This document shows, piece by piece, positions 11,216 through 39,799 of a stretch of 64,000 nt of DNA (the first letter of the stretch is position 1; each line of letters starts with the position of its first letter). A model generated the notes under the pieces. It had not been told where the DNA came from. It saw only the letters and a list, made by a program, of their open reading frames with translations, and searched no databases. The stretch lies in the NCBI GenBank assembly GCA_905178155.1, contig CAJINV010000003.1, forward strand, positions 9,989,979 through 10,053,978. Reading direction: 5' to 3'. A program made the position numbers and the translations under genes. The DNA is from Amoebophrya sp. A120 (lineage: Eukaryota > Protista > Dinoflagellata).

Positions 11216-14200
11216 TTGAAACTGCAGAGCTTCACCTATGTAAAACTTCCACTGGGTAAGAACGGGCTTTCCGTGTGGTTTTCTTTTACGCCGATAGTAT
11301 CGGCGGAAATTGACACCGACATGCCGAGCAGGTTTTTGCAGAAAGTGCGCAGCTGTATAGACAGGAAGGATGGGTCGGGACAAGGTGAAGCCAGTCGGTC
11401 TTGCCTGGGCACGTGAGCATAGAAAATCGCTGCTCGCTGCGTATCAGTGAGGTTCGTGGAGAGTCTTCGGGAAAGTTGCTCGTTTTCGTTGAGAGTGTAC
11501 AGAGAGTAGTCTTTGCGTCGCGCGTGCCTTGTATGCGAAAAATAAGAGGCACCGGAAGTTGACACAGAGGAGGTCCATCAAGCGGAAAATGTCATCCGTG
11601 GTATGACATACACGATTCATTGTCAGAGTGACTCAACTCTTCGAGCAATTCGCTTCGGATGGTTGAAAGTGAGAATTGCCGCATGGTCGTTTTCGTTAGC
11701 CTCGATAGACATGCCAAGAAAATGCAAAAAAGATTGCTGACCTACTGTCCATAGATTAGTTGCCGCGCACAATTGACTGTAGCGCCACCATGATAGAAAG
11801 TGCGGCCTTCGGGCACCATCACGACCAAACTGGAGTTGCAGTGACGGCGCGCACAGAGGAGGCTTCGGGCTCGCGAGGGCCCCCGGCTGCTGAAAACAAA
11901 GGGAGTGGCACACAAAAGTCGATCGTTGACGTCGCAGAGGAATGTACGGTCTCCTTCGTTATTCTGCCCGACTATCCACAATATATTTGCCGCATTCGTA
12001 CACAAAATGCCGACGGTCCAGTGCCTGACTGACAAGATTCTGTTCGTATCTTCATCGTGTTCAGAACGACAACTATCGTTTTGCAGTTTGGAAAAATTTG
12101 TACTATCAACATAGATCATGATCATTCTGTGCGTGTGCGGGAAATATGTACTATTGCATGCCGAGCACTACGGGCAAACAAAAGTGCTCAAGCTGGACCA
12201 AACGATACGGGAAATACGAGAGGCCTTGGAGCGGGAGCTGGCCATACCAAACTATGAGAATGCGTAACTCCCCTTTGCCCTCATCTGTCGTGGAAAAGTA
12301 GAGATCCACGGATGCTAATTCTTCGAGTTTCAGCTGCGTTGTAGCCTTAGCTAGTAATTGTGAGCAGCGTAGTGCTCGGACTCGACAGCAGCAACCACTA
12401 CAACAATAGGTCAGCCAAGGGCCGGGGCAACCTAGAGACGAGCAACAGGCCCCGTCGTACACATAAAGCGCGCCTTAATGACGACAGCATGGGCGAAGAA
12501 CCATGGAGCTCTGGATGGAGACTACTACTCCGCTTCTCGTCGTTGGACTCACACACGCCTGCCAAGCTGAGCGACTAGAGCCTCCGCCTTTGCGGTCCCA
12601 CGGGGACACTCTTCAGCGGTTCAATCGCTCAGCAGACGGGGCGAAAGCCTCCGGCTGCGCTGCGCCCTGTTCCAGATTCCTTCGCGCCTAGTTCATATCC
12701 ATGAACCCCATCGGTTCCAACCAGGACCGACGGACGAGCGTGATCGCAGTAAGACCATCGGGGGAAAAGAGGCCGCTTCGCGGATCCCTAGAGAAGGCGC
12801 CGACCTAAGCTCGGCAGGGGCCGAATCACATTGCCTGCGTGTTTGCTGGTGATTGGAAAAGTGGCGCGCCTGCCACCTCGCAAAGCTTTCGTGGCTGCCG
12901 CCGCTGCGTCATGCCGGTGGGGCACTTGGCCCCCTGTGAAGAAACTCACAGTGGGGTGGCTGGGCTTTCGGGGGGTTCGCCGGTTGGCGTGAGAAACAGG
13001 GGGGCAGGCCCAAAAAGTGCTCGCGGCGAGGGGCCTATCGGGGCGGAGTTTTCGTAATTCTCCGCAGCGCTGCGCTTGCGCCCCCGGTGCAGCATACTGC
13101 TGGCGCCCTTACTCGGCGGGGGCGGCCCCGGAGGCTGTTTTTCTTTCGTTTTCTCCAAGGGCTGCCTCGCACTACCGCCGCCCGCGCGCGGGCTTTTCCG
13201 CCAACGCACTGGGGCGCGCGCTCTGCGTTTTCTTTGTGCGCGCGCCTCCTAGATCACGCGCGCGCAGCTCTCGCCTTTGCCCCGCCCGGCCCTGCTTTGC
13301 CCGGCGGGCCGAGTGCCGAGGCGGCCCCGCGTCTTTTGGCCGCTACCGCGTTCCCCCGTGGAGCCCAGATAGCTGCGCCCCCGCTCGGACCTGGCGGACG
13401 CTCGGGGGGGGGGGCGCGCCCTCTCGATTCGCCCGGGCGTAGCTCCTGGCGCCCTTTCATGACCTTGCAGCCCCCTTCTGCGCCGGGCGTCTCGGGGCCG
13501 CTTTGCGTGTTTTGGAATTGCGCGCGCCGACGAAAGACTTCACGGTCGCGGAGCCCAACTACTCGGGCCTTTGTCCCGGACGCGTGCGCTCGGCATACGC
13601 CCGGAAGCCCACGCGGCGGGCTTTCCGGGCAAGCGGCGCCGCCATTTCCGACAAGAGGAAAAATAAGGCGGGGGTGGTTCGCTCACACGACACGGACAAA
13701 AATGCGGCTGGCACACTGGCTGAATTCTGCAAGAAGGGTCGCGCCAGCGGCGACTTCCTCGAAGCAAAAATCCCACAGGCGAGCAGCCTTGCTAGCAGTT
13801 GCGAACAACGGAGCGCCACAACTGGAGTTGCATGAGTAGACCCACCCGCAAGCTATCAATCTATATGAGCCAGGGCCTTGGTGCGCAAAAACCCGCCGGC
13901 TTGTGCGTATTTGCTTTGGATTAAGCGCGCCGAGCGGCCCGCTGCGGCCTCGGCGGGCGCTGTCCTTCGCGCGCACCGCGGAGGGGGGCCCTTGTGTGGG
14001 ATCCGCGGCCCGCTCAGAGAGCTTGCCGCGCCTTTTTTGCGTGCCGCCGTACTTTCCACGCGCGGCGCGCCCGGTAATTCCGCGCGCTTCGCTGTGCATT
14101 AGAGCCCTCCAAAGCCGGGCTGGTCCGGCCCCGTTCCTTGGAGTCTTTTTGCTCTTTTTTATTTGCCACTATTCACCCTCGGGCAAAGAAAAAAAATAGG

Positions 14201-15596
14201 CGCACGGCCCGCCTTCGGGGTGCTCGAAAATGGGGAACCGCGCGGGGGCCCAAGGAAGCCCCTGCGGTCGTGGGGCGGTCTTCGTTGCCCTGGGTCTGTC
14301 CTCTGCACTGCCACCGACTCTGGGAGCTGCGGCCGCGCTTTTTTCTCCACTGCAGCCAGGCTGGTGGCCTCAGTGAGTGCGTGTGTCGGCTTGGGTCTCC
14401 CTCAGTCGCGCGCCTGTGCAGTTTCTCTAAAAGCCGGAAGGGTCGTTTTCTCGTCTATCGGCAGACTTCGCCGACCCCGGTTGCCGCTCCCACTAGATCC
14501 AACGACTGCTGTAATTGCTGACTTTTCTCCAGCCGGGTCCCATCCTGTGCATTCGTGACCCTCAAATAGAGAGGAGGGCGGGTTGCGCAGTTTCATACAA
14601 GCAAGTCGCTCTCTATGATGCAGCTCACGGGCGTCGAAGGTGGTGCCGTAAGTGGTACACTGCAAGACACGAGAAGCCTGCGGCAGTACGGTGTTCGGTG
14701 ATAAAATGAAAAGCGCCCCGACCCCAGCGCAGACTGGCAAATACAGGAGGGGAGCGTATTTGGAAAGCTGCATGTGCAACGCAGAACATGATAGATTTTT
14801 AGCGACGCTCTGTGTTGCGCGGCGGCACAGAATCTATACATAGTATGCGCCATACCAGAGCGTCCCGGCACCACCGCTAGGCTATGAGACGAAATGGACA
14901 GTGTTTATTTTCTTCACGTGACATCGCTGTAGGTGCAGGTTCAGGTCTCCTGTATCAATCTGTACCTTCTTTGCTTCTTGCTTTCATGTGGAAAGGCGGG
15001 AGCAGCGCTTTTGCACGCGTTTTTATTTATCTGGAGCGTCGTGGGTCGCTCAGTAAACAGAAAGCGACACCAGGCTCCAAGTTCAGCCGCAGAGCAAAGA
15101 GGAAAGACAAAAACTGGCTACCAACTGATCCGACGAAAGCGCGGAAGCGCTTTTCCTGCCTGCTCTTGTTGTCGCTCGTATACTTTTTCTGAATCTGTTA
15201 AGGAGTGAAGTTTGGCCAGTTTCTGTCTGCAAAGTCGAAAATATAGCAAGTTGAAAGCTGTTGCTGAGTTTGTATACAAGCGACGCCGCGCTTGCGCAGG
15301 CCAAAGATTTCCGTTTGGACACTTTAAGTACACTTCTTGGGGAAGGGCGCTTTTTGGTATGATATCCGTCCCGGCAACCAGATAGGAATAGAACTCCGGA
15401 TCAACTATTATGAAGCTGCAGCGAGCAACTCGTCGTATTTATAGTCTCGACACAAAAGCAAAATCATGAGTCTTCTGCACGAAGTTTTGAAACAGAAACG
15501 AAGACTTATCAGAGGATAGTAAGTATGTTTTTCTGTCCGGCCGAAGCAGGAGAAGGGTAGGTTCCTGCTGCCTTGAAAAGCAAAACACTCATTCAG

Positions 15597-18500
15597 GTAT
15601 GTTATGCCGGAGGTTTTAAGTGTGACCGTTGCAGACGTCGAGGGAAGGCAAAGACAACTCACTGTTGCAGTTACGCAAGTCGCAGACGGATTTTTTTGAA
15701 CGGAGCAGGGCCTTCAAATTGATACAACATACCTGGTTAATATATGTGGGTTTACTTTTGGATGGGGAGCTAATAATTAAAAAAAGCGCACACGTCATTC
15801 CATTTTTTTTGGTAAGTCTTGAAAATTTAAGCTTGCTGATGTAATCAGAGGAGCAAATGGAAGTGCGGCAAAGTCATGCCTTGGAAGCTCTTTCTTAAAG
15901 CAACTCACGGACTTTTCATGAATAGAGTTTGCTTCGACACAACGAGACCGAGGCATGGGAAGTGCTGTTTTGAAGAAATCCCATCTGACCGACTCATAGC
16001 AATTGAAAAGCAACAAGCCGCAAAGCCCTATCAGGGTGGATATCGCCACAAGGCTTCGGGTAATTGAGAAACTCATTATTTGTATATCAGTCTGCTATAT
16101 AAAGTATCCGTTGGTGCTCTCCTTGAACAAAAATGCTTGCAGTTTAAATCAGTAATATTGATTACTTGCTGCCTGTAGCAGGAACCACAACCAATCCACG
16201 CGGCGTGGGCCGCGTGGGAAAAAATGCTCCTTGAAGGGTTAATTCGGTACCCGCGCCTGCATTGGTTTAGGGTTTCGGGCTTCTAAGGTTGAGGGTTTAG
16301 GATCGTCGGGCACGGGATACTCTTCCTGGCCCCCCTCCCACTCCCTGCGCGCCCTCTGTGGCTTTATCCTGTGCCCGTGCCTCCGCTCCCTCTCGCGCTT
16401 GCCTGGTGTTTCTTCTCGCCGACCCATGTGCCACCCCACGGCCATCGCTCATGTTGATGCTCTACGTAGCTGGTTGGGCTTTTGAGATTTTTTGGAAGTT
16501 GCTGAGGCCCTTCGGGTCGTTGGGATCGAAGGGTAAGGAGTTGCGATTCCTGTATTCCATCCCAATCCTTTTCTCTTGTGACCTCGGGAAGAAGCCGCAT
16601 GAGGCAGGAGGCGTCAGATTTGAAGAAAAAAGCGCGATCTTTAGATTGCAGTGGTTCAAAAAAAGGGCAAGAAAAACCAACACCTTTGAAGACGGGCGAG
16701 CCATATTGGGCTACTTTCATGCCTCTGCTGGGTACAAGGGGACGCCAAGAGAGGCCAAGCGCTATACTTTTGAAGCAAAAAGACGTCCTTTTGGTTGTTC
16801 TTGCTCTTTTAGGCCTCAGGCAAGATCCGGAAAAAGTGGGTCGCAAGATCCGAAAGAAGCCAAGGGCGGCTACAAAGTTGGCCACTGTTGGTCTTCTGCC
16901 GGCCGAGCGAGGTCCGGAAGAACGCAAAGAAAAGGGCCCGCTTCTACGATAGTGCGCACATTTGCGCTTGGGCTTCCTCAGAGGTGTTAAAAAATAAGTC
17001 GCTTGCGCATCACGAAAGCGCTCGCTTTTGGCCAGATCCAGAAGACGGCAGAGGAGTTGCTTTCTCGTTATAAAGGCGGCCACTCTTCTTGGCTCCCTGC
17101 GGAAGGGGTGATCCCGGAGGAAATTAAAAAGCCACTTGCTTCTTTACAAAAGTGGTCATTTGTGCCTTCTACTGGAGGGGCCAGAGCTGGAAGAAACCAA
17201 AAGAAAAGCGCGCCTGTCCTTAGAAAAGTGGGCGCCTCTGGAGTCTTCCAGAAGGGCCAGACCTTCCGGAGGCCCGAGAAGCATCCAGCCGCTTTAGCCA
17301 AAATGCGCCATCGAAAGTGCCGCGTTTCATTTTGAGCCTTCAGGAGATTTTAAAGGCTGGGCCTTGAGGAGGTTCAAAACCTTCTGAAGGGCAAAAGGTC
17401 GCGAGCTGCCGAATTTTCTGAAGGTTTTTTGGACCCAAACGTTTCAGAGGGTTGAGAGAACACCTGCAGAAGGTCCAGACCGCCTGCGGGGGAGAAAAAG
17501 AAGCTATACTCTTCCGAGACTTGACCCAGTTCTGTTTTTGTTTCGGTCATTTTTTTACGGCGCTCGAATGTTCACAAGGTTTTTGCCCGTCTTCATGCGG
17601 CACGCCATTCGAGCCGTGGGCAAATGTGAGCGCACACTCCCGATATATGATTCACTAAGCCTGTTTCTCCTTTTGGACCTCTGGCCGTTTTCCACTTATC
17701 TTAATCAGTACCCCTTGTTTGGTATACCAAAGCATCGCAAACGGAGCGCAATGGCCTTCCCGTTGCCACATGTGCGCAATTCGATGGCGTGCCATCGTTC
17801 AAAAAGCCGGCCAGTGCTCGTTCGGGGCGAAAAAGTGGATTGGAAAGGAGCCCCATTTTCTTCAAAGACAGCAAAAACAGGAGGCCTCCAGAAGTGGAAA
17901 GGCCAAAAAAGTCAAACTTTGCGGCTCGGCTTGCTTTGTTTCGGAAAAGGAGCAACGGCAGTTTGAACTACGGCTGATGGCGTGGAGCGTTGCGTGGCTG
18001 AAATGTTGCCACCCGGGAGGCTGTCTGACCGCTTCTGGGCCAGAATATGAAAAAGACGCAAACTCTCGAGTAGCACAAGCCACCCAAAAAGACTGCGAAA
18101 CTCGTGCCCGGACCATCGGCCGCTTACAAATTGAAGGCGATGCCTTTAGCTTAAAATGCTCACTCCGTTTGGAAAGTGCGACCCGGAAGAGGCCGCACAT
18201 TGTCCGGGCCGAAGCAATAAAAAGAACGCATTACTTCTCGGAGCGGACGCGTGCCCTTCCTGCCCAGTTTTCGGCCTCGTTGAGGGCCAGGAATTGCGGC
18301 GCTTCCCTTTCTTACAAACGCTTTACTTGGGCGGCCCAAAAGGACTGCCGGGAAACGCGAAAACTACGCAAATCCGTGGGATTCGTCGGCTTTTGCCGGT
18401 CCGCCTGCTCTGCTCGCGCATAGACCTTCGCGCTGACTCGGACGCTATGCGCGCTTTTGTGTATCAGCATCAGCCCTTCCGGCGCGACCTGCATAAACGA

Positions 18501-21500
18501 ACTCGGTATTGATAGTCTATTTCCATCTCCGTTTACACTTCTTCGCCATATTTCCCGTGTCTGAGAATATAACGCGCCTGCATTTCAGGCGTCATGTACC
18601 ATCACGGGAGCACTCAAACCGCCAGGCTCGAGTATGCGTTCGAAGAGGCCGTCTACTGCCGAGCAAGAAGGAGCAAGTTTATAGTGCGGCAATTTTCAAC
18701 TCAATGCGGTACAAGGTTCGTCCACGCCCTTACTCATGTTGCATGATCATTTGTTACATAGATAAGAAGACGCAAAGGGTATGCTTGCTCTTACGTGCCA
18801 GTTAGGAGCGCATCTTCCATATGATATTGAGGAGAAGGAGTATACAACCAAGTTTCACCGAGACACGCTATCAGACGAAGAGTGCGTGGCGTTTACAACA
18901 CTTTGCCACGAATACTGCACAACTTTTCTATATTTCAGGCAAAAAGTTTTTTTACCCAATAGATAGATAGATAGCTAGCTAGCTAGCTAGCTCTACCCGG
19001 CAGGAAGACAAAACTAGTTCTAAAAAATTATTTACCTTATGCGATCAACAGGCTCGAGAATTTGTCTTCTGAAGTCAAATGACTCAGCACGCCTTCTATT
19101 AAGTCCCCTAAAGTCTGGTCTGCTAATCCAGGCGGTGGCAATTATTTCGTGCCAGACTTCTAAACAAGTTTTCTTGCCTCTTGGCGGTAGTTTGTCTAAT
19201 AGAGAGCCCCCAGCTCGAGGCGGCGCCGGCGGCGCCACCTAGAACCCAGTTTGCGTCTTGGGCGGCGCCCCCAGGTTTGCGTGTTGGGCGATTTTTGAAG
19301 CGTAAAAAATTTTGGGCTTCGCGCGATTTTCGGAGATCAGAAAAGTTTTGGGCTTTGCGCGATTTTTTGAATTTTCAAAAAAGGGCGATAGTGCGAGGGT
19401 GCTAGAGCGAGGCGGACCGCAATCGAGCTTCCCTTCACTGCTAAAACGGGTGGCGTTGCGTCACTCGAGATGCCTGGCTCTCAATGCAATGCAATGCAAT
19501 GCAATGCAATGCAATGCAATGCAATGCAATGCAATGCAATGCAATGCAATGCAATGCAATGCAATGCAATGCAATGCAGACAATCGACCTTCAGGAACTC
19601 AATGACAGGACGAGGGCAGCTCTTCGAGCTCGCCTGACGCGGAGTTTTTGTCTAAGAAGCTCGCGCTGCATTGAATTTTCAAAAAAGTTTCGAAGTTTGC
19701 GAATTTATTCGAAAAATTTCAGAAATATTCAGGAGGTGGGCGAATGTTGGGAACTCGTGAATATTTTGGACATTGGCGAAGTTCGGAAAAGGCTGTGGAG
19801 ATAGGCACCTTCACAAACTCGAGCATATTTTTAATTTATGAAAGCGGGCAAAGTTCTTGCTCTACTTCTAGTTCGCAAAAAAATTTTTTAAGTTTGGCAA
19901 TTTCAACAGCCCGAAGATGTTTTGAAAGACAAAAAAAAGTCTGCAGCTGCGTTGCGCGATTTTCTTTCCCCGGGGCGCTCGTTCATCTTCCGCAGCGCAG
20001 CAATAGGAGACATATGCCATGCCTAGGCGACTATATACTAACTATATATAGTTCATCGTCACACTTAACTAGCCACGTACGCTTCGCGTTTGCCTGTAGA
20101 AATGTTAAAGAATAACGCAGCACAGGGCGCCAAGGAATAGAAGGACGGGGCAGTAGTCGCTCGAAAAACGAGAAAGAACTAGGCGCGGACGGGCTTCCCC
20201 TGGCGAAGCATGTCGGCCCGGCGCGCCGCGACCCGCAGGCCTGAATGATCTTGCCTGGCTGCGCCTTTCGGCGTGCCGGTTTGCTTCCGCAGGGGCCGTG
20301 GAAGTCCGCGTGGCTTGCTGCATGTCCTCCGTTTGCCCCTGCCTGCCTCGATCCGTCCGGGTTGCCGGAGGTGCCTGGCAGGACCCTCTTGGGGCCACTC
20401 GGCTTCGCCTGCATGCTGGGGCCCGCAGAAGACGGCGCCGCCAAGGCCTTCCGCCCTTATTGAGGCCCGGTATGTTAGGTGGGTCTATCTCCTGGCTTTG
20501 GCTTTTCATTCAGGGCGGCCGCGGTTCGGGTCGCGCGCGCAGCGCGAAAAGGTCGGTCTGCTCGTTTCTGCGGATCGCCAGCGAGATGGTACGGAGAAGG
20601 GGCGCGCGAGCGGAGGAAGTGGGGGGCGCCGCGATCTCGAGCGCCAAGGGTTGAAGCTAGAAACACTCGCACAGCAGACATCGGACGCGGAAGCAACTTG
20701 CAGCCCCAGGAGGGCACGTGCTGGCTTGTCACCACACATCAGAAGTCGCTAGCTTTCTGCGCTATTGTGCCTCCGCCGGCTTCCCGCCGGTGGGGCGCCC
20801 GACTTTTTTTTGCGATTGCGCAGCCAGTATGTGGTTGTAGGTCTGCGCATTTCCATTTGTTTCTATCTCGATTGGGAACCGTCTCTCCTGTGCCTGAACA
20901 AGTACCGGTCAATGCGACTAACGGAAAAGGCCGCGCTCTTGCGTCGTGCCATCGCCAAGAAAGCGACTGGCTTCGGAGCGAAATAACGCCCCACCTCAAC
21001 GTGCAAGAGCCATGGCGCACAGTATGGTGATCTAGAGGAGTGTTGCGCGTCGCAAATGAATTATCTTAGGCCTTGGCAAAAATATAGATTTGGATCTTGA
21101 GGGGCTCGCAGGGCAATTTGTAAAAGTCACGCCAAGTATATCGAAGAAAAAAACACCATCACAATCACAAAACTCAAATTTTCAAAATTTTTGACCATCA
21201 AAATTAAAATTTCGCTGGACTTTCGCGGCACTCCCGAACCTGTTGTATCTGGTTTTGAGTGTTGAGTTTTGCAGCAGATGATTTATGATATTGGCTATTG
21301 GCGGTAAGCTAGCTAGTTAAGAAGAGAGATTTCTGAAGACAATCGTTCAGCTTCCAGCAGACGAACAGTGGTAGATGGGGTTGTCGCCCTCTGGCCCCAC
21401 CTGGGGCCAGAGGGCGACAACCCCATCTACCAAGCTTCGTCTGCTGGAAGCTGATCGTTTGTCTTCAGAACTCTCTCTTAACTAGCTTACTCAAACCGCC

Positions 21501-24500
21501 ATTTTTGACATAACCAAATAGCTAACACAAAAATAAATACATTCGCATTCGAGAATTGAAAAGTATTTTCTTACCTGAAAATCAAAATAATTTTTTGTTC
21601 AGCTCCTGCAAAATTTTGAAAATTTGAATTTTGTGATTGTGATGGTGTTTTTTTCTTCGATAAAGTAGTTTGTGTCCTCGATACGCGCAGACCGTCGATC
21701 ACAGAACGCGCTCGGTTCAGTCAACACGGGAAACAGGCACCCAAATGCCAAAGAAAGGTACGACATACGGCCAGGCTCTGCGGCCGACAATATCTTGTAA
21801 AGCATGAGTCCACTTCTACGCTGATGAAGTGATAAGCTGCAAGTTCTTCGCGTAGCAAGCATATTTTTGATTATCTATGAGTAGTATCATGGTGGTATGT
21901 ACACGTAGGGAGGTCACGAACGTTGTAAGCTCGCGTCTTTTTTGCCATCTAGTGCGAAAAACGACCGGCAGTTTTGAAGCGGGCGGAGGTGTTTGCACAC
22001 GAAAAGCCACGCAGTTTTGAGCTGGCCGGGGCTTTGTTCCGAAACAAGCCCCCCCGAAATTGCAGCTATTGCCGTGTATAAAGACGACGCAGAGCAGGAG
22101 CCCAAAACAAAGTGGCGCCTTAGGGCCTGCCGATTCGAGGGGCAGAAAAAACAGCGGCGTGAAAACAAAAAACCAGCATGCTGTGGGCCTCATCTTAGCC
22201 CACAGTTGAAGACAAAAAAGCGGCCAGCAAAGTCGGCTACTTGTAGGGCCTGGAGCAGGCCAAAAGCAAACAACAAAAAAAGGACGCGCCGCCAAAAGCT
22301 GAATGCATGCTGACTGGGTGCTCACGGAGCCGGCCCGGGCGGGCGCCCGGGCGGGGCCATGGCTACCTTTTTTGTTTCCCAAGAGCCTCCTTTGTTAACC
22401 TTGTAACCCTCTGCGCGATACCCCGCGCACAGGCCCCCATTTTAACGCGAACCTTTTTAACGCGCAATGCCCAGCGTACCTTTTTAACGCAAACAGGCCC
22501 CCTGCTTAACCCTCTGCGCAATACCCCGCGCAGGATAGATGGTGATGATGATGATGATGATGATGATGACCAAGAGTTTACCGCTTTTCGCCCTGTGCCA
22601 AGAATCGAAGGCCAGGGCGCCGCATGTTCCAGGCCCGATTTCGGGCACCCAAGGGGTCGACGCTCGCGGAGGCCCAGCCTGGGCCACTGCAGGTGGGCCA
22701 GGTTTTTTCTTTTAGTTGGCATGGGTTTGCCGCCTTTCGCCAGAAACCGAAAGCCAGGCCGCGCACTCTTGGCAAGGTTTCTGGCCCTCATGGGGCCGCC
22801 CTCCTGGTGGCGGCTCAGCCGGGGCCAGGACCAGCCTGCGGGAAAGCGTTCTGCTTCTGAAAGCAGCTGGGGAGGCTATAAATCGCCTACTTCACTCGCG
22901 ATATTGATGGCGTGCCGCATCATGCGGAAGAATGATTTGCGCGAGGTCATGGCGGTCACAGAAGGACGCGGTCAAAGGCCGCGCAAAAAAACCGCCCTGG
23001 CCGCACTACCCCCCGAGCCGGCTACTACTAATAAAATATATTGGTAGCCAGTGGCGCCGAAAGAACGTGCGCCGGCGACTCTGTTGGCGTTTAGGTGACA
23101 AGCTGGGGGATTTGTCCTCTCTATGTGCTGAAGTCACAAGACTTCTACTTACTTAATATGTCTGGTGAGTTTTTTGCCACCGAAGCAGCAAAACGAGCGG
23201 CAGTTTGTGTGCGGCCGGAAGTCTTTTCTCCACATAGAAAGGCTGCGGCTTCTTCTAAGCTGGTAGGGCTTATTTGCCGCCGAATAAACCTGCCTGAGTG
23301 ATAATGTTAATTCTATATCCGCGACGTGAAAAAAGAAAAAGAACGCAAGGGCGCCGGCAAAAGTGGCGGCCTTGTGAGGCACCCACCGCCTGAGATATCG
23401 GCGGCTTGCGGCGCTCAAAAAGGGGCGCAAGGAACGCGCCAGCACGAGCGAAACAGGTGGGCCGCCTGGCGCGGGCAGGATTTCGGCGCATCTCCAAGGG
23501 CCAAAAGGGCCGCCATTAAGGCGGCCACCTGTGCGGCGGGCAGCAGGCCAAAAGCTGTGCGCTCTAGACGGAAAAACGCCCCAAATAATACAGGAGCCGG
23601 CAAAACCCGACAGCCGGCCTGCCATGCTATTGGCCCGACGCCGGGCGCTCATAGGTCTGCGGCCGGCGGAGACCCCTGCGTTTGGGGGCGACTTTCTTTT
23701 TTGAAGACAAACAGCCAGCGCGCGACTTTTTGGCCCCAATACTAACTTCCTGCCACGCCACGAAGACCAATATATTTATAGGCGCGGCGGCGCAGTTCTC
23801 GAGACAGAGAGCGCGACTGTTCCGCTCATTGCGCTGCGCGAAAAAGACAGAAGGACGGGCCGTAGCCAGCCAAACAAAAAAAACCGCACTGACGTCACTA
23901 CCCCCGCTGAGGCGGCGTAGTGTATATTGTAAATCGGCTTTTTTGGAAAAAACTGGTCGCGCGCGCTACCATAGCGTGACCGCGTGTCAGTCTCAACAAA
24001 ACAAAACAGGAGTGGTTTACGTGAGCGACGAGCACGATAAAGTGATCTCAGGCACGCGGTATTTCAGCAGTGCGGACCTTTTTGCGCTCAGACTCGAAAA
24101 AATCCAAGTCATACAGTGCCATGCTCGGGGTATGTTTGCACGGAGACGCGCGCGCATGCTAAGACAGGTGAGTACTATGCTATGTGCTTTTCTGTTCGCG
24201 GCTAAGACCGTAGCTATCCTACGAGACTCGAAGAGCTGCGCCCGCTAGGCCTGGCAACACAAACTTGCGCTAGAAGGAGCAGAGTTCACAGAGTTCCAGG
24301 GCGGGACTCGTTTTTATGGCGGGGGAGAGCACCTCCGACGCCGACCCCTCCTTTTGGTTTTGCTCCACTTCTTACATGCGTCAGCGTGTGAGAACGCATA
24401 GCACTGTCATTCTGGGGGGGGGAACCCCCCCCGTTCCAGCGCGCATTGCTGTGACCGTGTGAGAAGCTCCCCTTTTTTCATCCTGGGGGAGGAGACCCCC

Positions 24501-27500
24501 CCACCCCACCCCACCCCCGCCTCCCTCTTGTATCGCGCACTGTGATCAACGTGTGAAAACCGGCAGCACTTTCTTCCTGGTGGGGGAAGACCCCATCCCA
24601 CCCCCCCTCCCACTTTTCCAGCGCGTGCTGCTATGACGGTGCGGCAACCTGCACTATGTTCACTCGGGGGGGGGCGAAATCCGCCCCGACATCCCCGTGA
24701 CCTCCATGGGGGTGAAGCCCCTCGGCCTTTCCGCCCGTAGCGAGCGGCAGCAGGCCAGGAGTGCAGCCCCGCCCGATAGCGCTAGGGAAGCGGCGCCAGC
24801 GCATGCTGGGCAAGCGGCAGCCGCGAGGGAAGCGAAAGCCGGCTAGCGCAGGGAAGCGGTAGCCGGCTTGCGCAGGGAAGCCGTAGCTGGCACTCTGAGT
24901 ACGGTGTCGTTCCGTTGAGCAAGCCTCTGCCAAAGTGCCTTCTGCCTTAGTTCAGGCTGCTTCTTGTTGCCCTGTCCGGTTGCTATGATGGGTAGGGTCC
25001 CTCTCCCTGCGTGGCTAGGTGCTGCTACACGACGGACCCCGCAGAGGCAGGTGCTATCCCACGGAGGCTGACTCGTTACCCGACTCGCCATGTCAAGCCC
25101 GGCCCGGGGGCAGGCCGGCTCGTGCCCGAACGTACGCCCATACATAGTAATGGATCCGATGCCGTTCTTTCACCTGGGCCCGGCCTGAAAAGAGTGGCTC
25201 CGGAATACCTCGCGGGGCGCCAGGAGCTATGCGTTGGATCTCCGCTGGCTGCATTGCCAGGAGTGTAGGATACCTGCCGGCCGATGCGACGGCGCTGGAC
25301 CACGTTCCACAGCCCCATGCTGCACCCTCGGCGTGCTCTCGTCGGTCCGACGCCTGATGCAGCTGCCCGTCAGGGCAAGCGTACGCAGGAGTGGGCTGGG
25401 CTAGGTGCGGCACATTCGTCGCACCTCCTTGCCAGGCCGCGCACCCTACCGGCGAGATGGGGAACACCATCCACCCCAAGGACACGTGGCAGAGCTTGAG
25501 GATTTATTTTTGCGGTGCTCTAAAACATTTCCATCGTGATGAAGCGATGACAAACAAACGCCAGTACTACTACTTCCCCAAACCACAGCGTAGAGACGAG
25601 AGCGCGCAGCTCGCAGTCGCGAAAGAGCAGAGGAAGCAGCTGGAGGCCGAGTTGCGACACAAGCGCGAGTATCCGCTGCAAGCGCGAGCACCCGCCTGGA
25701 TCAAGAAAAATGCAAATTCTTGCGCTTGCTGCTGCTGTTTGTGTGCAATGAGAATGACGAGAACAGTGGCGCTTCAATTCATCACATGGATTGGCGTTTA
25801 TGGGAAAATTATTATGAGTGTGCTGCAGGGAACGTCAAGCTGAAAGCAGCGGACATTGCCCAATTATGGCGGTTCGCTGTTTTTTTGCTGTATCTTTTAT
25901 GACGAGCTCGTATCAAGAAAAGAGTCAAAGAGTTGGTAGAAATGAATGGTTGAGTATGAGCGTCAGACGGAAGGTAGCTAAGACGTGATGAGTAGCGGAA
26001 TTGCCTTATGTACTCAAGCACACGCATTGTAAGCACTCTTGCATTTTCTTCGACTCAGATATGTTTGCAAATGAAAACGAGATTCAGCGGCGCATGCATC
26101 CCAGGACGTACGAAGACTTCGCAGTTCTGCACAAAGAATTGGAGATGTGGCGAGTAAAAGAAACCCGAAGAATAAAAGAAGGTAGAACTGTGGTAGTTGT
26201 TTTCTTTGCCTTCCTGAGGTTGCCCTCATGAAACAATTCTCATCTTTGCAAATAGCGCTCGTCTATTTTGCGCGACAGACTTTTTGTTTTTACACCGCAT
26301 GCATTATACCCAAAATAGATCTGGACACCAGTAAGGAGCAGAAGCACCAAGCCTTGGAGCAGCTGCTGCACAAAGAGACGAGGTTGCTGCAGACCCTGGA
26401 CAAGTTGAAGACTCAGGCGCACAAGCAAAACAAGGGCGCCAAGGTCCGAAAACAGCTCGAACAAATGTCACAGCGTATCCTGGGTAAAAACCTCAAAACC
26501 TCGCCGCGTGGCACGTACGCAGCAGAGAAGTCCACTTTATTTACTACATCGCGCAGAGTTCGGGTGTGAACTTACTGCCTGACCGTCTTCGGAGGTGGTT
26601 TCTAGATCCAGTCTGTGTGCCGGTTTTTACGTCGGCGCGACTTAGGGTGCATGGGGTAAAAATACGAATGGCCACGCCGGCGTGTCCGGCTACCGCTTAC
26701 CTGACGTGCACAATGCGCGAAGTTGAATAAAGTCAAAAGTCTGTTTTTGTGTAGTCTACTCCATGCATCGGGCGATATTGTCTGGGGTGGTTTTTGGACA
26801 GGATACCTCCAAAGGTGTGGCGGCAAAGTGATAACGAGATTGTACGCAAGACATTTGAGTGGCTGTCTCTCCGTTGTCCCGGTAACCTCACATGGAAGAC
26901 ATATCACAGACGCAGTGCTGTGTGGGATTGGTTGCAGATCGATTTGCAATGCGAAAAGCTCAATTGAACAGAAAAAGCATACAACATCGTGATTGGGTTC
27001 AGAAGCAGCTGCAGGAGACGCAGGCTGTTTTGACCAGTTGCGGCCGTGTGCGCAGCATGACGAGCTTGCGTTTTTATGCAAAATGAAAGACTCAATGAGG
27101 CACTCCCACTTGAGCTTCCAATGGATTTCTTGTGAGTCGGATCGTGGCAATGGAGAATCAGCTATCTGGCGCGTATAAGCGACAACGGTCCACACACCCT
27201 ACACCACTAGGGCAAAAGAACTGCTCGACCTCTTATGATCTGCAAGAGTGATGTAATCGCTTCCGACACTGGCCTCGCTCATTTCCTCCAGCCGTTTTTC
27301 TATGAGTGCGCATGTCTTGTTGCAACCAGTTGTTATTTGGCAGCATATATATGCTTAGCATAACCACGGCTGCGCGACTATGCCACTGTTGCAACGCATA
27401 CCTCTACAACGGCCTCAATTTGCCCCTCCTGTCTATTGACGAAAGGCTCGACGTGCTGCTACACGTATAGCTTTGTTCTTTTTGGTCTTCGTTTTTTGAC

Positions 27501-28740
27501 TCTCGGAGATCGGACCTTCTGGCTATCTCTTTTATTCGTCGCCACCTCTACCTCTAGGCAAAAACAAAAAGTCGTCTTGCCAAACACATCATGCACAGAA
27601 GTGGATCGTGATGTATCGGCCGTCGTGCCTCTGCCGACCGGCTCTCGTACGAGGGATCTGGTATTAAGAATAAAGAGAAGAACTGGAATAAAAAAAAGAG
27701 AGAGAAAACTCGTTTATGCGATACTGGCCGCCACGCAATTTCTTTTTCTACGCATTCGCCGTGGCGCACTAAATTTACATGGGTCGCCGGGAAAGGTCGG
27801 CGGGCCAAACACACAACGCACGGAAGTGAGACTATGTGTCAGCCGTTGCGCTTCTTTTACCGAGCGATCCTCGTACGAGGGGGATTGGGCGTGATGCTAG
27901 CAATTTACATCGGTTGCCCTCGCCGCGCCACCTCTAGGCAAAAGGTTGCCGCGCCAAACATACAACGCACGGAAGTGAGTCGTTTTCGTCATGTATCAGC
28001 CATCTCGCCTTGTCTACCGTCCGATCCTCGTGCGTGGGGGATCGCGCGCTGCCCTTCGTGTCTAGTACTGGCTATCACGCAGTCTCTATGTAGTCGCTGT
28101 TCCGCACGAAGTTTGCGCTGGTCGTCGTGCCACCTTTAGGTATATTGAGGTTCTTGTCGTTCCAAACCCACAACGCACGGATGTGAGTCATCATTTTTAT
28201 GTGTCTACTTTTCGGCCGTCGCGACTCTACCGACCGATCCTGGTACGAGGGGAATCGGGCGTGTCCCTTTGGATACAAATAAGTACGCACCGCACGACGG
28301 CAGTGAGTGGTCACTATGTATCAGCCGCCGCCGCGCCTCTACCGACCGACCCTCGCACGAGGGGAATCAGGCGTGGCTCTTTGGATGCAAATGTAAGAAA
28401 TCATATCCAGAATGAGTCCGAGTTTATTCCTGATTCTTAGATCAATTTGCAATGACGTCTGCAGGTGAAGTGGACGGTAAAGGAGTTCGACTGCAATCTG
28501 ACCAGAGACATAGTCGACTTGATTGATCGAGAAGCCGACATGTTGAACCGAGGCCGCAGCGAGTCGAGCTTCGCTGGCCTACGAAAACGGCTGGCAAACT
28601 TGTTCCTCCAATTTGTCGAAACGCCGGACTTCAACCCCGAGGCGAGTCGATTCCAGCAGGTTCCGCGGGACATGATTCGTCAGACCGCAGTGCAGCCGCT
28701 GTCTACCGTTCCGCTCAACACTGCAGTTGGCCGAAAATGA
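15597..28740 (+). CDS. IQUB: IQ and ubiquitin-like domain-containing protein (IQUB/FAP253, flagellar radial spoke); multi-exon, 5' exons not resolved
   Basis: Inferred exons, boundaries approximate: 15597-15669 (YVMPEVLSVTV..), 16002-16059 (IEK..KPYQGGYRHKASG), 18589-18632 (VMYHHGSTQT), 18832-18868 (KFHRDT), 21689-21757 (QT..TRSVQSTRETGTQM), 24010-24167 (IQ motif IQCHARGMFARR), 25589-25669, 26082-26181 (RRMHPRTYEDF..LEMWR), 26319-26474, 26807-26841 (PKVW), 27182-27233 (HTPYTTRAKEL), 27406-27464 (ERLDVLLH), 28465-28740 (VKWTVKEFDCNLTRDIVDLIDREAD..FNPEA). The motif order matches the IQUB family as I recall it. Confidence 0.9.
18959..18992. repeat. Compound (TAGA)n(TAGC)n microsatellite
   Basis: atagatagatagatagctagctagctagctagct, read directly from the sequence. 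Confidence 0.9.
19482..19578. repeat. (CAATG)19 pentanucleotide microsatellite
   Basis: Perfect tandem array; it explains the MQCNA-repeat ORFs in the track. Confidence 0.97.
21139..21662. mobile_element. Foldback/MITE-like element with about 50-bp TIRs, TA ends and a perfect central hairpin
   Basis: TCGAAGAAAAAAACACCATCACAATCACAAAA.. at 21141 is the reverse complement of the sequence ending at 21660. Central 31-bp perfect arms at 21369-21399 and 21402-21432, with imperfect pairing extending over about 21300-21490. Confidence 0.85.
21904..23030 (+). mobile_element. Helentron-like family copy containing a nested insertion
   Basis: 5' CGTAGGGAGGTCAC...AAAACGACCGGCAGTTTTGAAGC; degenerate 3' GCCGCACTAC-CCCCCG at about 23000. 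Confidence 0.55.
22386..22569 (+). mobile_element. 184-bp SINE-like insertion with a (GAT)n tail and a 7-bp TSD
   Basis: CCAAGAG at 22379-22385 and 22570-22576; ends in a GAT run; internal direct repeat TAACCCTCTGCGC(G/A)ATACCCCGCGCA. Confidence 0.7.
23122..23928 (+). mobile_element. Diverged Helentron-like family copy
   Basis: Degenerate 5' TATGTGCTGAAGTCAC..AAAACGAGCGGCAGTTT; 3' GACGTCACTAC (23891-23901) followed by the hairpin CCGC-tgag-GCGG and TATATT. Confidence 0.5.
24010..24167 (+). CDS. IQUB: IQUB exon carrying the IQ motif
   Basis: cag| ... |gtgagt boundaries; encodes VVYVSDEHDKVISGTRYFSS..KIQVIQCHARGMFARRRARMLRQ. Confidence 0.85.
24315..24890. repeat. Repeated G-tract/C-tract hairpin units followed by short tandem AGCGCAGGGAAGCG units
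   Basis: GGGGGGGGAACCCCCCCC, GGGGGAGGAGACCCCCC, GGGGGAAGACCCC and similar; GGGAAGC repeated about every 20 bp at about 24780-24885. Confidence 0.6.
27583..28400 (+). repeat. Five-unit degenerate repeat array inside the last IQUB intron
   Basis: Core ACAACGCACGGAAGTGAG..TATCAGCC..CCGATCCTCGTACGAGGGG starting near 27583, 27808, 27956, 28164 and 28286, separated by variable spacers. Confidence 0.8.
28465..28740 (+). CDS. IQUB: IQUB terminal exon
   Basis: ctgcag| acceptor; conserved C-terminus LIDREADMLNRG..GLRKRLANLFLQFVETPDFNPEA; TGA at 28738-28740. Confidence 0.9.
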   Translation: MKWTVKEFDCNLTRDIVDLIDREADMLNRGRSESSFAGLRKRLANLFLQFVETPDFNPEASRFQQVPRDMIRQTAVQPLSTVPLNTAVGRK

Positions 28741-29594
28741 CCAGAGGAGGAGAACCAGCATGTCCCCCGGTTGGCCCGATGCATCAGTTTCGCGTTACTT
28801 GTTGTGCTGCCTGATTCCGAAGTAGCTTTCATGCCCAGCCAATTATACTATATGAATACAGCCCTATCCTATAATTTAATGAATCTAAATACGCTCGTTC
28901 AAGGTTTGGGCGTTTTGCTTTTCCTTTTGTTAATGACTGACCCGCATTATCTCAAGCATGCTGCAATTGTCAACTGATATTCCGTGAGCAATGTGCTTCA
29001 GGAATGCGCAGGGCTTCCACTTAGGTAACAGATTTTTCCGCTCTATAATTCAACCGTGTGATGATTTGCTACACGGAAAACAATCCGAGAACATTTGGCG
29101 CTCAGGCTCCGGCGGTTTGGAAGCAGTTGGTTTAGTCTCTTCGCAAGACCACGACCATACGGATGCATGTTTCATGTATATAAAATCCCGCGGGACGTCT
29201 GCCGCGATCAACCGAGACCGAACAGATTTCAATCGAAAAATAGGAGTCGTGTGGGAATAGCTCTGCCATCGTTGAGTATGTGCTGCATTTTATTCAGACC
29301 GTGGCTTTTTGTTTCTCTTTAATCCACTTCGCAGTTTTCGATCGCGAGGCGATGCTGTTTTTCTGATTCGCTGTAGTTTCGCGCAGTCCTGGAACTATGG
29401 ATCGAGTCTTGTCGTTCTAGCGAAAGGCTGTTACTCACTTTTCTGTAAAAACTAACTCAGGAAACGCAAAAGCAAAACCAAAAAGAAGTAGAACGAAGCC
29501 CGGCCCCTTTTTTCGTTACCCCTCCCCTTTTTTTCTTTTTTTCTAGTCTGCGAAACAGTAAAACGAGGTGCGTACCCCGCGCGTCCCATCGCAC

Positions 29595-29615
29595 GATAGA
29601 TAGATAGATAGATAG
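29595..29615. repeat. (GATA)5 microsatellite
   Basis: Read directly from the sequence. Confidence 0.85.
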
Positions 29616-29928
29616 CGATTACAACTCAGAGCGGAAGCCTATGGACGTAAAGTCGTTGGTTGAGCGAATCATTGTCAGCAGCCCGCAAAAGCCCGCAGCA
29701 GCTCGCTTTATCGGGTCTCGCGGTTTTCGCCGAAAAATTAGATCAACCCGGTGAATCATCAGTAGGACTCGATGCTTAATACGCTGGACGTTTTTCTCCT
29801 ACGTACTACTTACTGCCTCGCTTGCGGATGTTCGCGCATACATGAAGGGCGATTTCTGTAGTTGTTAGAGAGTAGAGGAGTCGCTTCCAGAAGGAGTGAA
29901 AGCGATCGGAATCAGTCACAGTCAATAG

Positions 29929-32300
29929 ATGGGCTTGGCATACAGTAGCATTTTTCAGCGACTGCCCCCCGGGGCCCGCGTGGTTGTGATGGGACCTCAG
30001 AACGCGGGCAAGAAGACGTTGGTGGGCCGGCTCAAATTACAGGAGGAAAAGATCGTAGTTCGCATGCCGGATGCATTCAGCATTCGAGCCTTTCGCACGC
30101 CTCCGACCACCGTGACCGGATCTGGCCGGGCGGACGGCGTAGGAGATGGACCACGATATGCATTGCAAACATAGTATCCATCTGGGTCTGCGAGGTATTG
30201 ATGCTAATTCTTGAATGACAAAGCGACTGCTGCAGGAAGCAACGGGTCACAAGTGTTGTAGCGCAGGATAATTGGCTCGTCTTGTACATGACAAGCCCGG
30301 TTGTTGTCTGCGCGGATTCCTACAAGAGAGGTAGCTTGTCCCCAAGTGGCGACGAAGAACGGGAGCAGCAGAGCGCGGCGAGGTTCCGGCACTGCAATGG
30401 CTCCCTTCTGTTTTCAGCATAGCAAGCCGCACTGGCCACACCTCGCCCCCCGTAAAGGATAGAAGTAGCCCCCCGCAAGTGCGGCCAATGCCGTCCGCGC
30501 GTGGTCCCATGCTGTGCGACCGGGGCCAAGGTTTTGGACGGTCCGTGACGAACGTGCTGGACAGCCAGGAGATCGTATGATATCCGGGGCGCGATCTCGC
30601 ACTCTCCGGCCGGCTCGAGGTTGGTGGGAGGTGGCGCCTCGCTGAGACCGGGCTTTGGCAATTCTTGGGGGCGCCTTTCTGAAACGCCGAAACCCGCAGA
30701 GACCGGGCCGACCGGCCAGGCAATCGTTCGCTACCTGCTCGCTTCGCATGTTATTGATAGTCTGCCTGATGCGGGTTGGGCGTTCGCCGGCTGACTAGGC
30801 GCGCAGCTTTTGCCTTTCCCGGCTGGGTGGTAGAGCAATCTGTGGCCGGGGTACGTCGGAGGGTGTTGCTTCGCCATTCCTTTTCTCCGCGTATGACAAT
30901 CGCCTCGAACAGGGACTGCCAGCAAAGTGGGGCGGCGCTGCGACAAGCATGGAAGCCGAGAGGGGCAGCGCTACACTTCGAAGCGCAGGCGACAGGGCGT
31001 CAGCCACAAAGAAGCGGCGAAGGGCTCCGGGTGGCTGCCTATGCGAATCTGTAGCGCGTCGCCTGGGCTGTGCCGGCTCCCCGCGAGAATGTGTCTAAGG
31101 CAGGCCGCTAATCTCCCATGGGGGCCACGGGGTTGATCGGGTTGAATCATGAGCAAAACAGCCAATCTACCTGGTAGATGTAGGCGGCAGCGCGCCTCCC
31201 TGCGTTGCGTTACCACAGAACTTGCCGGAGGGGTGTCAGTGATGCGCGTGCGCCGGCCAGCAGCGCAAACAGGCCGGCCGGCCACAGGCCCGGCGGGGTT
31301 GTTCACATTGGCGGCATGGGCAACAAGAAGCCGCTGCGCAAGAACGGCAGGCACCAGCGAGCTTGTTGGCGCCACGACAAAGGGCGACGGACAGGACGCG
31401 GGCGAGGCGTGCAGCACGCAGGCGGGCCCAGGTGCAACGAGGCGCCTACGTCCAGCGCGCGCCCGCTGAGTGGTTTGCCTTGTTGCCAGCAGGCCCGGCG
31501 AGCAACCTACTGCTGCAGGACACGCGGGCAGGCCGAAGAAAACAAGCGTGGCAACGGCGGGGGATGCAGCGCAGGGAGCGCCGGCGATGTATTGCGATGG
31601 CGGGGGGCGCTTCGGGTCAGGGCAAACCGGGCGCACCGGAACACGTAGCGAAGGCAGGGAAGCAGGCGAGGCGATGCGCCGCAGGGGCAGGGAGCGAACG
31701 CCCGCGAGTGCGATGTTGCGTTGGCTGCAGTGTTCCCGACCTAGAATTGTTTGCAATGGATGCATGACCTGCGGAAGCAACGCCGTCGGTGCTGTGCCTT
31801 GATTTAACACGAAAAATCTGGGCCAAGTACGCTGCGGATTTGCGGAAGTACTACAGTCAAGCGGAGTGTCTCTATGAGAGTGCACAAGCCCTCGCCCACG
31901 TCAGTTGAAGGGCATCTGCAGAAAAAGAACAAGGGGTAGCGAAGTGGTCGCAGCCCCTGTATGATACACTGGGAAAGGGGGAGCGGTGCACCCGCATAGT
32001 TGCATTTTCGTCGTTGACAGTAGTGACCGAGATTCGCTACTGGACGCCAAGGATCTGCTGCGCCGGTTGCTGAAAGACCCTTCCGTCACGGATAGTGTTA
32101 TTCTGGTGCTGGCAAACAAGCAGGACGTGGACGGCGCACTGTCGGTGGGCTCCGTGACACGCCTGTTGGATCTGGAGCAATTCAACAGCTTGATCTGGCG
32201 CGTCATTTCCACATCCGCGCTCTCTGAGCAGGGCGTCTACGAAGCCTTGGACTGGATGAGCCGAACAATCGTCAAGAAGGCGGAGCTCGATGCAGATTGA
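29929..32300 (+). CDS. Divergent ADP-ribosylation factor (ARF/ARL)-like small GTPase, at least 4 exons
   Basis: N-terminal MG myristoylation-type start; P-loop GPQNAGKKT; exon at about 31807-31847 (TRKIWAKY, equivalent to IRPLWRHY); GT-AG intron 31848-31999; last exon CIFVVDSSDR..VLANKQD..TSA..GVYEALDW ending at TGA 32300. Confidence 0.85.
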
Positions 32301-37600: not shown

Positions 37601-39799
37601 GGCATTCCGGGAAATTACTTTCCCCGACCGAAGCGATAGCGTTCGGAGTCGGTGTCGGACTGTGGGTCTGAGTGGCCGCGCCACCGTCTCGAAGCGGAGA
37701 AACAGGCTCGGCAGACCGGCTGCCGGTAACGCCGGTCCAGATGGACCCTGCCTGGCCGCGGGAAGTGCGCTTGCTTGACGATCTCCCACCTGGGTATTCC
37801 ATACAAGCACGGGAAGAAGGCCGGGGTCAGGTGGTATGACTTCGGAGGAAAGAAAAAGGACAAACTATTATCCCGTGTGAAGTGGTCCCCATCCCGATGG
37901 TCGTGTCGCATATATACTCAAATATATAGTGGATGCGCAGCAAGTCATTCGGTTTCCCGTGACAGTCGCTTTCTACCATTGTTGGGCATTTTCGTCAATA
38001 GTCTAATAAGGATAAGGGAGTGGTGCTACTATACACGCTGAGCACGCGACGGCGCTGGGCGTCAGACGTATTGTGCGGAATTGTGAAAGTTTCTGGATTT
38101 CTTGTGTTGGAACTCGTTACGTGAGTCTGGCATGGGGGTGGTTTTGCACGGGATAAGTATGAAATTGAGCTCCATGCTCTCGCCCAAGAAAAAATACAAC
38201 CCGGTAACTCGCACACCTATGTAAGTATGCTACTTACGGGGCGTAACTAACTAGTGAGTCACTGCTGTTGTAGTGATAGTCTTCGCTATCACTTATTTTT
38301 CTGTCAGGGATTTTCTCGTAAAAGGCTCACGTAGAAGTGAGCACAAGTGGCTCTTCGATCAGGAGTCTCAACGTTGAATATCAAGTTGTGCTGCAGTCTT
38401 CTACCCATCAAAAACAACAAACGCTGTGCGTTTTTGGATGGGCTTTCTTAGTATTGCAGCGTCAGTCCCGGTCGTGAATCTTTCTTATGCGGTCTTTTCT
38501 GCACATAGTCTGTGCATCGCGAGATATTTTTCGCAGATGGTGTTACACGGATACAATACATATAACGCGACGCCGTCTTTTTCTCGGGTGGGGAGAGTTT
38601 TCGATATGATTGAAGGTGGAGTTACCAATCGAGTGCGGTAGTGAATGATTTTTTTTTCTAAGCGAAGTAAAGTCATGGTCGCGTAAGACTCCGAGCTTCT
38701 CGTTCCTATTGGTGATGTACTCATGTTGGGTCGCTTGACATGCACGAAGAAGAAGGAGATAACTGCTTGCTTCAAAACAAGAGAGACAAAAACCATGTAC
38801 ATAGCGAAAAAATTTCCTCAGCCTGCCGGAAGTTCACGAAGTACACATACGGCCTCTTCGCGATTGATACGGACTGGGCTTCAGCAGATGTGCTGGACTA
38901 TCGATGTTTTAGACAGGGCGTTTCAAGACGGTGCAAGCGGTTTGCCTTGCATGATGTGTCTCAGCAACAGAAAATATTAGATATCGCGGGCGGCTTTTTT
39001 GGCATCTCCCTCGCAAAACGACCGGAAGTTTTCAAGCCTGCCGCGGTTTTTTTTCATAAAAGAGCTTCACTTTCTAATTGGCCAGGACTCCGCCGTCAAA
39101 GAACCCCGACGGAATTGTATTTGCCTAAAGTCGACACATGGGAGTCGGCACAAGTGACTCCCCAGTGGGGCGCCCGGCATTTCAGATGCCGCCGCTTGAG
39201 GGCGCCCAGAAAGGGCCCTCAAAAAATTGCGAACAAACAAAAACCGCGAACCCGCATGGAGGTGTGGGCGCCACTTTGGCCCACTTTGGAAGGCTGCAAA
39301 AGTGGCAGCCGAAATGGCCCACGTCGGTGGCGCACTTGTACCGCGGTGGGCAGCGCAAAGCGTGCGCGCTTTTGATTCAAAAAAACAAAAGCGCACTAAG
39401 TCTGCCAAAATCGTTAAACAGCCCGCATGCTGCGGGCCCGGTTTGTGGCCCCCAAGGGGCCGGCCTTGGCGGGGACCAGGTTTGATTTTGTGAAGTCGGA
39501 AAGCTGTTAAGGTATGGCCGCGACCTATGTTACATGTGCGCCAGGCCATGAGGGATAGCATTATGCGCGCGGCGGGTATGGCGCACGGCAGGAGCAGGGC
39601 CCTGGGAGCCCGGATGCCCCAATACGTCGAGCGCCTTGACAAAAAAGCCGCAAAGAAACCACGGAGAGAGGCGGCTGCCTGTTATATAATGGTAGCGGCG
39701 TCGGGTTCTGCGTGCGAACGCGAAGTCAATGCAAATATGCCGCTGCGTCGAGTGCCGCAGATCTGAGGGCCTACATCAGCCCACCCCTTTGCATTTTTC

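Follow-up and report, generated by a model that had tools for sequence, protein, structure and literature searches.

The introns most closely related to those described here are the introners of Amoebophrya strains A120 and A25 (Farhat et al. 2021, PMC7789003). The portions of the published texts covered here, to which all our statements about described systems refer, report more than 60% non-canonical introns and inverted repeats of 8–20 nt. In A120, the inverted repeats begin with TAT, which is followed by seven bases and then As. The direct repeats described are 3–5 nt long. The text recognizes no clear splice signature, describes the splice sites as variable relative to the hairpin, and reports that U1 small nuclear RNA (snRNA) was detected in neither A25 nor A120. 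The nine predominant A120 splice classes in Table S4 of that study all begin with NT, and the listed A25 classes all start with TT. Four other publications (PMC11282704, PMC12130899, PMC12005148, and PMC11453091) repeat this picture and add no register of the cuts, and one of them states that GT-AG is used by another strain (PMC12005148). Here, we analyzed a window of 64,000 nucleotides from Amoebophrya sp. A120 (contig CAJINV010000003.1, positions 9,989,979 to 10,053,978 of the forward strand; all coordinates below are those of the window). A single register fits all 19 of its non-canonical introns in our set: one base, the repeat ends TAT...ATA, and four bases, where the one and the four bases (1+4) add up to one 5-bp target duplication.

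The window resembles the described A120 introners in the proportion of non-canonical introns (19 of 32), in the TAT + 7 nt + AAA motif of the repeat, with A at +12, +13, and +14 in 12, 12, and 11 of the 19 introns, in its short direct repeats, and in the NT starts. The nine NT-starting classes of Table S4 agree with the 1+4 rule. The host also matches, as the spliced 3′ part of the IQUB gene (IQ and ubiquitin-like domain protein) of the window is identical to the Amoebophrya sp. A120 protein P0001 in 451 of 452 residues, and the odd residue spans an upstream junction. The introns are supported by transcript contigs and depart from GT-AG: none of the 19 combines a GT or GC donor with an AG acceptor in any allowed register. 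Unlike the variable sites and the 3–5-nt repeats described in the text of PMC7789003, whose figures lie outside this comparison, the introns here share one register and one duplication length of 5. The nonconventional introns of euglenids (PMC11282704) are similar in having terminal inverted repeats (TIRs) that pair at a constant distance from the non-canonical junctions, border repeats that resemble duplications, and a likely origin from MITEs (miniature inverted-repeat transposable elements). However, their stem contains CAG at +4 to +6 and CTG at −8 to −6, whereas the stem here has TAT at +2 to +4 and ATA at −7 to −5; furthermore, they belong to an unrelated lineage and are released as circles. 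The introners of Micromonas, Aureococcus, and Polarella (PMC11282704, PMC12130899) are likewise DNA elements that have TIRs and a target duplication, and their splicing leaves a single target copy, but their GT or GC and AG are supplied by or co-opted from the element or the duplication, whereas neither G at +1 nor AG is needed here. The introns of Fritillaria borealis (PMC11282704, PMC13326754) are mostly non-GT-AG, likely of MITE origin, and removed by an altered U2 spliceosome. They prefer the ends AG-AC and AG-AT, whereas in the window the end dinucleotides are nearly free and the position relative to the repeat is fixed.

The junctions were derived from contigs aligned to two parts of the window. 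For 12500–32400, the contigs came from runs X1 and X3, which represent one sample whose RNA nature is a guess by the tool, and 15 of 18 joints were listed. Contigs of runs X1, X2, and X4, together with the DNA-like run X6, were aligned to 34300–54200, where 15 of 34 joints were listed and a third gene was added to IQUB and an ARF-like GTPase gene. The two alignments represent two samples from one study. The 32 junctions used comprise 15 plus one from the first part, and 12 direct joints, three around two tiny exons, and one loose end from the second. Thirteen of them can be read as GT-AG or GC-AG and 19 cannot, in any allowed register; the GC-AG intron 41163–41425 was placed in the canonical-compatible set, although the 1+4 rule fits it too. 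The joint 50948–51008 was discarded as a repeat artefact: it is also present in the DNA-like run, has eight letters between its sides, and lies inside a repeat. Run X6 is flat at about 43x across 34300–54200, in long difference-free pieces with none of the splice joints, and may be the source sample of the window. Raw reads aligned to 12500–32400 gave no exon cover, with 43 partial reads at repeat-like spots in X8 and none in X9. The introns are listed below with coordinates, strand, length, ends (first base, repeat ends, last four bases), and evidence.

14698..15368, +, non-canonical intron, 671 nt, G-TGA...ATA-TCCG, start of the left repeat altered; contigs and protein alignment
15671..16002, +, non-canonical intron, 332 nt, T-TAC...ATA-GCAA; contigs and protein alignment
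18632..18830, +, non-canonical intron, 199 nt, G-TAT...ATA-TTGA followed by G, end-to-end duplex weak (z −0.3); contigs
18868..21687, +, non-canonical intron, 2820 nt, C-TAT...ATA-CGCG, contains a nested element; contigs
25669..26080, +, non-canonical intron, 412 nt, G-TAT...AAA-ACGA followed by G, duplex weak (z −0.3); contigs
26475..26809, +, non-canonical intron, 335 nt, G-TAT...ATA-CCTC, duplex z −4.3; contigs
26842..27181, +, non-canonical intron, 340 nt, G-TAC...ATA-AGCG, no direct repeat, cut pinned; contigs and protein alignment
27233..27404, +, non-canonical intron, 172 nt, T-TAT...ATA-CCTC, perfect 5-bp duplication; contigs
30156..31766, +, the real first intron of the ARF-like gene, 1611 nt, A-TAT...ATG-CATG, 11-nt exact inverted repeat; contigs
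31872..32002, +, non-canonical intron, 131 nt, C-TAT...ATA-GTTG; contigs
34851..35395, +, non-canonical intron, 545 nt, G-TAT...ATA-GGCA followed by G, the third case of the form GT...A|G; contigs
35459..37807, +, non-canonical intron, 2349 nt, C-TAT...ATA-CAAG; contigs
37865..38615, +, non-canonical intron, 751 nt, C-TAT...ATT-GAAG, no repeat, cut pinned; contigs
38898..41130, +, non-canonical intron, 2233 nt, C-TAT...ATA-CTCA; contigs
41431..42862, +, non-canonical intron, 1432 nt, T-TAT...ATA-CACT; contigs
42910..43150, +, non-canonical intron, 241 nt, A-TAT...ATA-GGCG, cut pinned, followed by a 10-nt exon; contigs
43459..44703, +, non-canonical intron, 1245 nt, T-TAT...ATG-AAAT; contigs
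53238..53681, +, non-canonical intron, 444 nt, C-TAC...ATA-TTAC; contigs
53806..55438, +, non-canonical intron, 1633 nt, T-TAT...ATG-CAGC, perfect 5-bp duplication; loose end in X4
11972..12164, +, IQUB intron, 193 nt, C-TAT...ATG-CCGA, fits 1+4; length from the annotated protein only
12252..14601, +, IQUB intron, 2350 nt, C-TAT...ATA-CAAG, fits 1+4; annotated protein and a contig loose end at 14598

A cut one nucleotide before the left repeat is permitted by all 19 introns. Offset 0, at which the cut would immediately precede TAT, and offset 2 are permitted by 13 of the 19 each and fail in the other six, and the three introns without a direct repeat (26842, 37865, and 42910) permit offset 1 only. 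The 5′ rule was set after the first nine introns and then held in 10 of 10 further ones. When the introns were scanned independently of any register, TAY..ATA with exactly 5 nt outside was present in 13 of the 19, compared to at most two of the 19 at any other spacing from 0 to 10, and in none of the 13 GT/GC-AG-compatible introns. ATA occupies positions −7 to −5 in 14 introns and is one mismatch off in the remaining five. The arms form 149 of 209 pairs in register, compared to 71–111 when slid by 1–4 positions. Fourteen of the 19 non-canonical introns, but none of the 13 canonical-compatible ones, have a duplex z of −2 or below. The last two intron bases take 11 values among the 19 introns. 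In addition, the two IQUB introns at 11972 and 12252 and one GC-AG intron fit the 1+4 rule. Taken alone, the fixed 1+4 geometry appears highly probable to us. No statement of it was found in the literature text searched, a scope outside which lie Roy et al. 2023 and the figures of PMC7789003, in which more may be shown; we regard the geometry as probably new, whereas the elements themselves are known. Where no clear signature had been recognized, it provides a rule that opens the splicing question to testing, as it supplies exact 5′ ends for the mapping of lariats or circles, a candidate branch A, and a simple design of mutants. A loose scan of the raw window for TAT..ATA pairs was too noisy to find introns without transcripts, as most of its 89 pairs had no duplication.

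It is likely that the non-canonical introns are transposon-derived Amoebophrya introners. They combine the terminal inverted repeats and the duplication of constant length (5 bp) that characterize MITEs and other TIR transposons. Perfect 5-bp duplications are present at 21139–21662, 27234–27400, 53807, and 57715–57924, and four or five of the five bases match in 10 of the 19 introns. An exact inverted repeat of at least 8 nt was found in only three of the first nine introns, so many of the repeats have decayed. In a BLAST search within the window, none of the 19 introns had a complete second copy. When metagenomes were scanned with P0001, with the best 80 of 268 loci kept, none of the four loci inspected contained this type of intron. 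Only a distant relative without these introns was found, L002, which is intronless over residues 241–538; the introns that L002 does have are GT-AG.

We slightly favor the removal of these introns by a modified spliceosome that uses the repeat stem, which is predicted to place both cuts in the 1+4 geometry; such a spliceosome is likely to read N-U-A and the stem. Intron lengths, the register common to all 19 introns, and the 1 + 4 = 5 spacing are direct observations, from which we infer the following steps. A TIR element would insert and duplicate 5 bp (abcde-TAT...ATA-abcde), and its arms would pair in the pre-mRNA, bringing the ends together. The 5′ cut would follow abcd, and the intron would start with e-U-A, equivalent to the canonical G-U-A donor with its first base free. 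The 3′ cut would fall four bases past the stem, where AG would be unneeded, and leave abcd + e, one exact target copy. The form GT...A|G would be the case in which d is A and e is G. The A at −7 might be the branch nucleotide: it is present in 19 of 19 introns, compared to 5 of 12 canonical ones, even where its partner cannot pair, and position −5 varies. The bases U at +2 and A at +3 occur in 19 and 18 of the 19 introns, and in 12 and 11 of 12 canonical donors in the window. More tentatively, and with some doubt on our side, the introns may exemplify a shape-reading splice mode in which the terminal stem serves as a ruler for cuts 1 nt before and 4 nt after it, with A−7 as the branch, and by which 5-bp-duplicating TIR insertions in exons, in either orientation, are removed tracelessly. 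If true, this would explain how tens of thousands of elements invaded genes.

Several points weigh against this account. The dataset consists of contigs covering three genes in one window from one study, and 22 joints lie outside those listed. The 3′ spacing was noticed only after all joints had been seen, and cut positions inside the repeats are unreadable from mRNA, which leaves only three that are pinned. The two copies of the duplication match at 62 of 95 positions, not much more than the 32 of 65 in the canonical introns, whose AG|G ends mimic a duplication, and one pinned intron matches at 0 of 5. The end duplexes of 5 of the 19 introns, including 18632 and 25669, are weak (z −1.5 to +0.3), so a strong stem is not always present. 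The bias to A at −7 is weak (Fisher p 0.11 on 19 introns; 0.048 on 22, with three introns added), and U+2 and A+3 belong to the repeat itself and thus are not independent evidence for a spliceosome. Finally, the text of PMC7789003 reports no U1 snRNA and calls the intron borders variable.

The same 1+4 geometry could be produced by a separate structure-guided nuclease and ligase, or by a second spliceosome, as proposed for the euglenid introns. This is possible, but we consider it unlikely. Such machinery would be in keeping with the near-random first base and last two bases, as neither G+1 nor AG is needed, with the undetected U1 snRNA in A25 and A120, and with the euglenid TIR introns, which leave as circles by an unknown route (PMC11282704). 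The modified spliceosome is nevertheless preferred because the 1-nt offset sets the U and A of the repeat exactly at donor positions +2 and +3, and because the two introns that have lost the TA start begin with GT (14698) and GC (41163), either of which can serve as a donor. According to the text of PMC7789003, the set of spliceosomal proteins is nearly complete. It is improbable that each intron is cut at a different place within its direct repeats and that the common register is an accident of a small sample. Sixteen of the 19 junctions do permit more than one register, and the legend of Fig. 3 of PMC7789003 describes the sites as variable; however, the spacing of 5 found without a register is exact in 13 of 19 introns, any other spacing occurs in two at most, and a single offset emerges both from the three pinned introns and from the intersection of all 19.

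A preliminary description of the window had proposed a different rule for five junctions, GT...A|G, according to which the nearest GT and AG are shifted by one base and the shared G is retained in the mRNA. The letters at all five sites are as described, with GT at the start and A|G at the end, and the claim that these introns depart from GT-AG was right. The contigs skip the 199 nt of 18632–18830 and the 412 nt of 25669–26080 exactly as proposed. The introns proposed at 15670–15998 and 26842–27178 are also real, but their lengths were wrong: the contigs skip 332 nt at 15671–16002 instead of 329, and 340 nt at 26842–27181 (GT..CG, no repeat) instead of 337, and the proposed junctions are correct only modulo 3. 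Each of them would add one residue that is absent in all 17 IQUB proteins aligned, a subset of the 120 matches listed. At the 15671 joint, the letters between the sides are marked as not known in the alignment, and the protein match supports none; at the 26842 joint, the record coordinates allow no extra letters (144 = 33 + 46 + 65). The fifth junction, 30112–30173 in the ARF-like gene, is not spliced. The contigs are continuous over 28465–30154, after which they skip to 31766; the segment 30112–30155 is exon, and the remainder of the proposed intron is the left repeat of the real intron 30156–31766; splicing at 30112–30173 would end the protein at 75 aa, compared to 209 aa for the contig-derived product. 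Four non-canonical introns in the same span (18868–21687, 26475–26809, 27233–27404, and 30156–31766) and the terminal inverted repeats were overlooked.

Across the window, the first base of the 19 introns is G in six, C in six, T in five, and A in two (chi-square p 0.52). The form GT...A|G is present in three of the 19 (18632, 25669, and 34851), which corresponds to a rough p of 0.047 under the target-duplication model and of 0.004 if the ends were independent, and in one of the 10 outside the region of the preliminary description. Duplications that end in AG produce this form, since the final base of the left copy opens the intron and only the final base of the right copy lies beyond its 3′ end. 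The offset between the real ends and the nearest GT and AG, which had been put forward as a check, is −1 in 4 of the 13 introns with both within 10 nt and takes other values in nine; −1 is the commonest value, but no rule. The shared-G rule does not hold, and G is not special. Of the two origins suggested for the rule, the footprint of G-containing target-site duplications named the right kind of event, but the duplication is 5 bp long and of any sequence. Shifted 3′ cleavage or a G-retaining splice mode finds no support, since only two of the five junctions are as proposed and the first base is not biased to G. That such a mode acts here is very improbable: three introns are so formed, slightly above expectation, but three of the five proposed junctions are wrong and 16 of the 19 introns do not have the form. 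The narrower rule would also lack the practical value of the 1+4 geometry.

A hairpin combined with a direct repeat is the usual setting for template-switch artefacts of reverse transcriptase, and the evidence here comes from cDNA-derived contigs only. However, we give even less credence to an origin of the joints by such switches, as three joints have no repeat, the restored frames match 17 homologues, skips extend up to 2.8 kb, and spliced contigs are far deeper than unspliced ones (210 vs 24 at 34851 in X1, contig depth being a coarse measure). Frameshifts caused by assembly indels or nearby canonical sites, which the preliminary description had named as grounds for refuting its rule, are the least credible explanation: the coverage of the DNA run spans 34300–54200 and not the five sites themselves, but the canonical alternatives (394, 352, and 56 nt) are not among the joints listed, so the four real introns are non-canonical, the contigs contain no indels at the sites within the finding, and X6 and X7 (possibly the source sample) hold 0.99 and 0.98 of the 24500–31000 words.

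Two of the three genes were characterized by their spliced products.

11790..28740, +, IQUB gene, 541 aa after splicing, 16 introns, Pfam family PF25805
29929..32300, +, ARF-like GTPase gene, 209-aa product, two non-canonical introns and no others, Pfam family Arf

The joints from the contigs yield a single open IQUB frame. The last IQUB exon is 99% identical to a 542-aa protein of Amoebophrya sp. A120 and 90% to the A25 orthologue, whose identities on the exons searched are 90% and 71%. The public A120 IQUB protein contains an extra Tyr at the 14698–15368 junction, which is missing from the contigs and from 16 homologues. The residue is likely an annotation error, and the correction of gene models is a further use of the 1+4 geometry. 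Public A120 proteins may derive from the very RNA that was sequenced in our runs and so are not independent of them. The contig-derived product of the ARF-like gene is identical to the 209-aa A120 protein P0121, and its last exon matches an A120 protein at 100%. The protein is divergent, with GPQNAGKKT at the P-loop position and an insertion where canonical ARFs carry a switch region, and its near relatives are found only in a few protists. A single X3 contig spans IQUB exons, the intergenic stretch, and the ARF-like gene (28465–32400); it may reflect read-through or overlapping transcripts, between which a contig cannot discriminate.

Intron 18868–21687 contains a further element of the same build.

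21139..21662, no strand assigned, nested TAT...ATA element, terminal inverted repeats perfect, 5-bp duplication (AAGTA) likewise perfect; from the sequence

This 524-bp foldback element is located about 20 nt from the 3′ end of the host intron and interrupts its right repeat. The host intron is still spliced despite the insertion, and the nested element could be an intron within an intron. Another TAT...ATA element with a perfect 5-bp duplication lies at 57714–57928, where two of the three joined frames are open, in a short stretch tested; from its letters, the 1+4 rule predicts an intron of 215 nt. The apparent GC-AG intron 41163–41425, which fits 1+4 too, is followed by an inferred 5-nt exon at 41426–41430, and the 10-nt exon occupies 43151–43160. 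A family of repeated elements is present at 49715–50430, about 8150–8850, and 47600–48150, inside long introns and between genes. Its summed depth in X6 is about 6,000, compared to 43 (bin 49572–50235), and parts of it recur in intron 38898–41130. Two long unbroken open frames, 1556–4090 (844 codons) and 58962–60179 (405 codons), measured from stop to stop, stand out in the otherwise intron-rich window.

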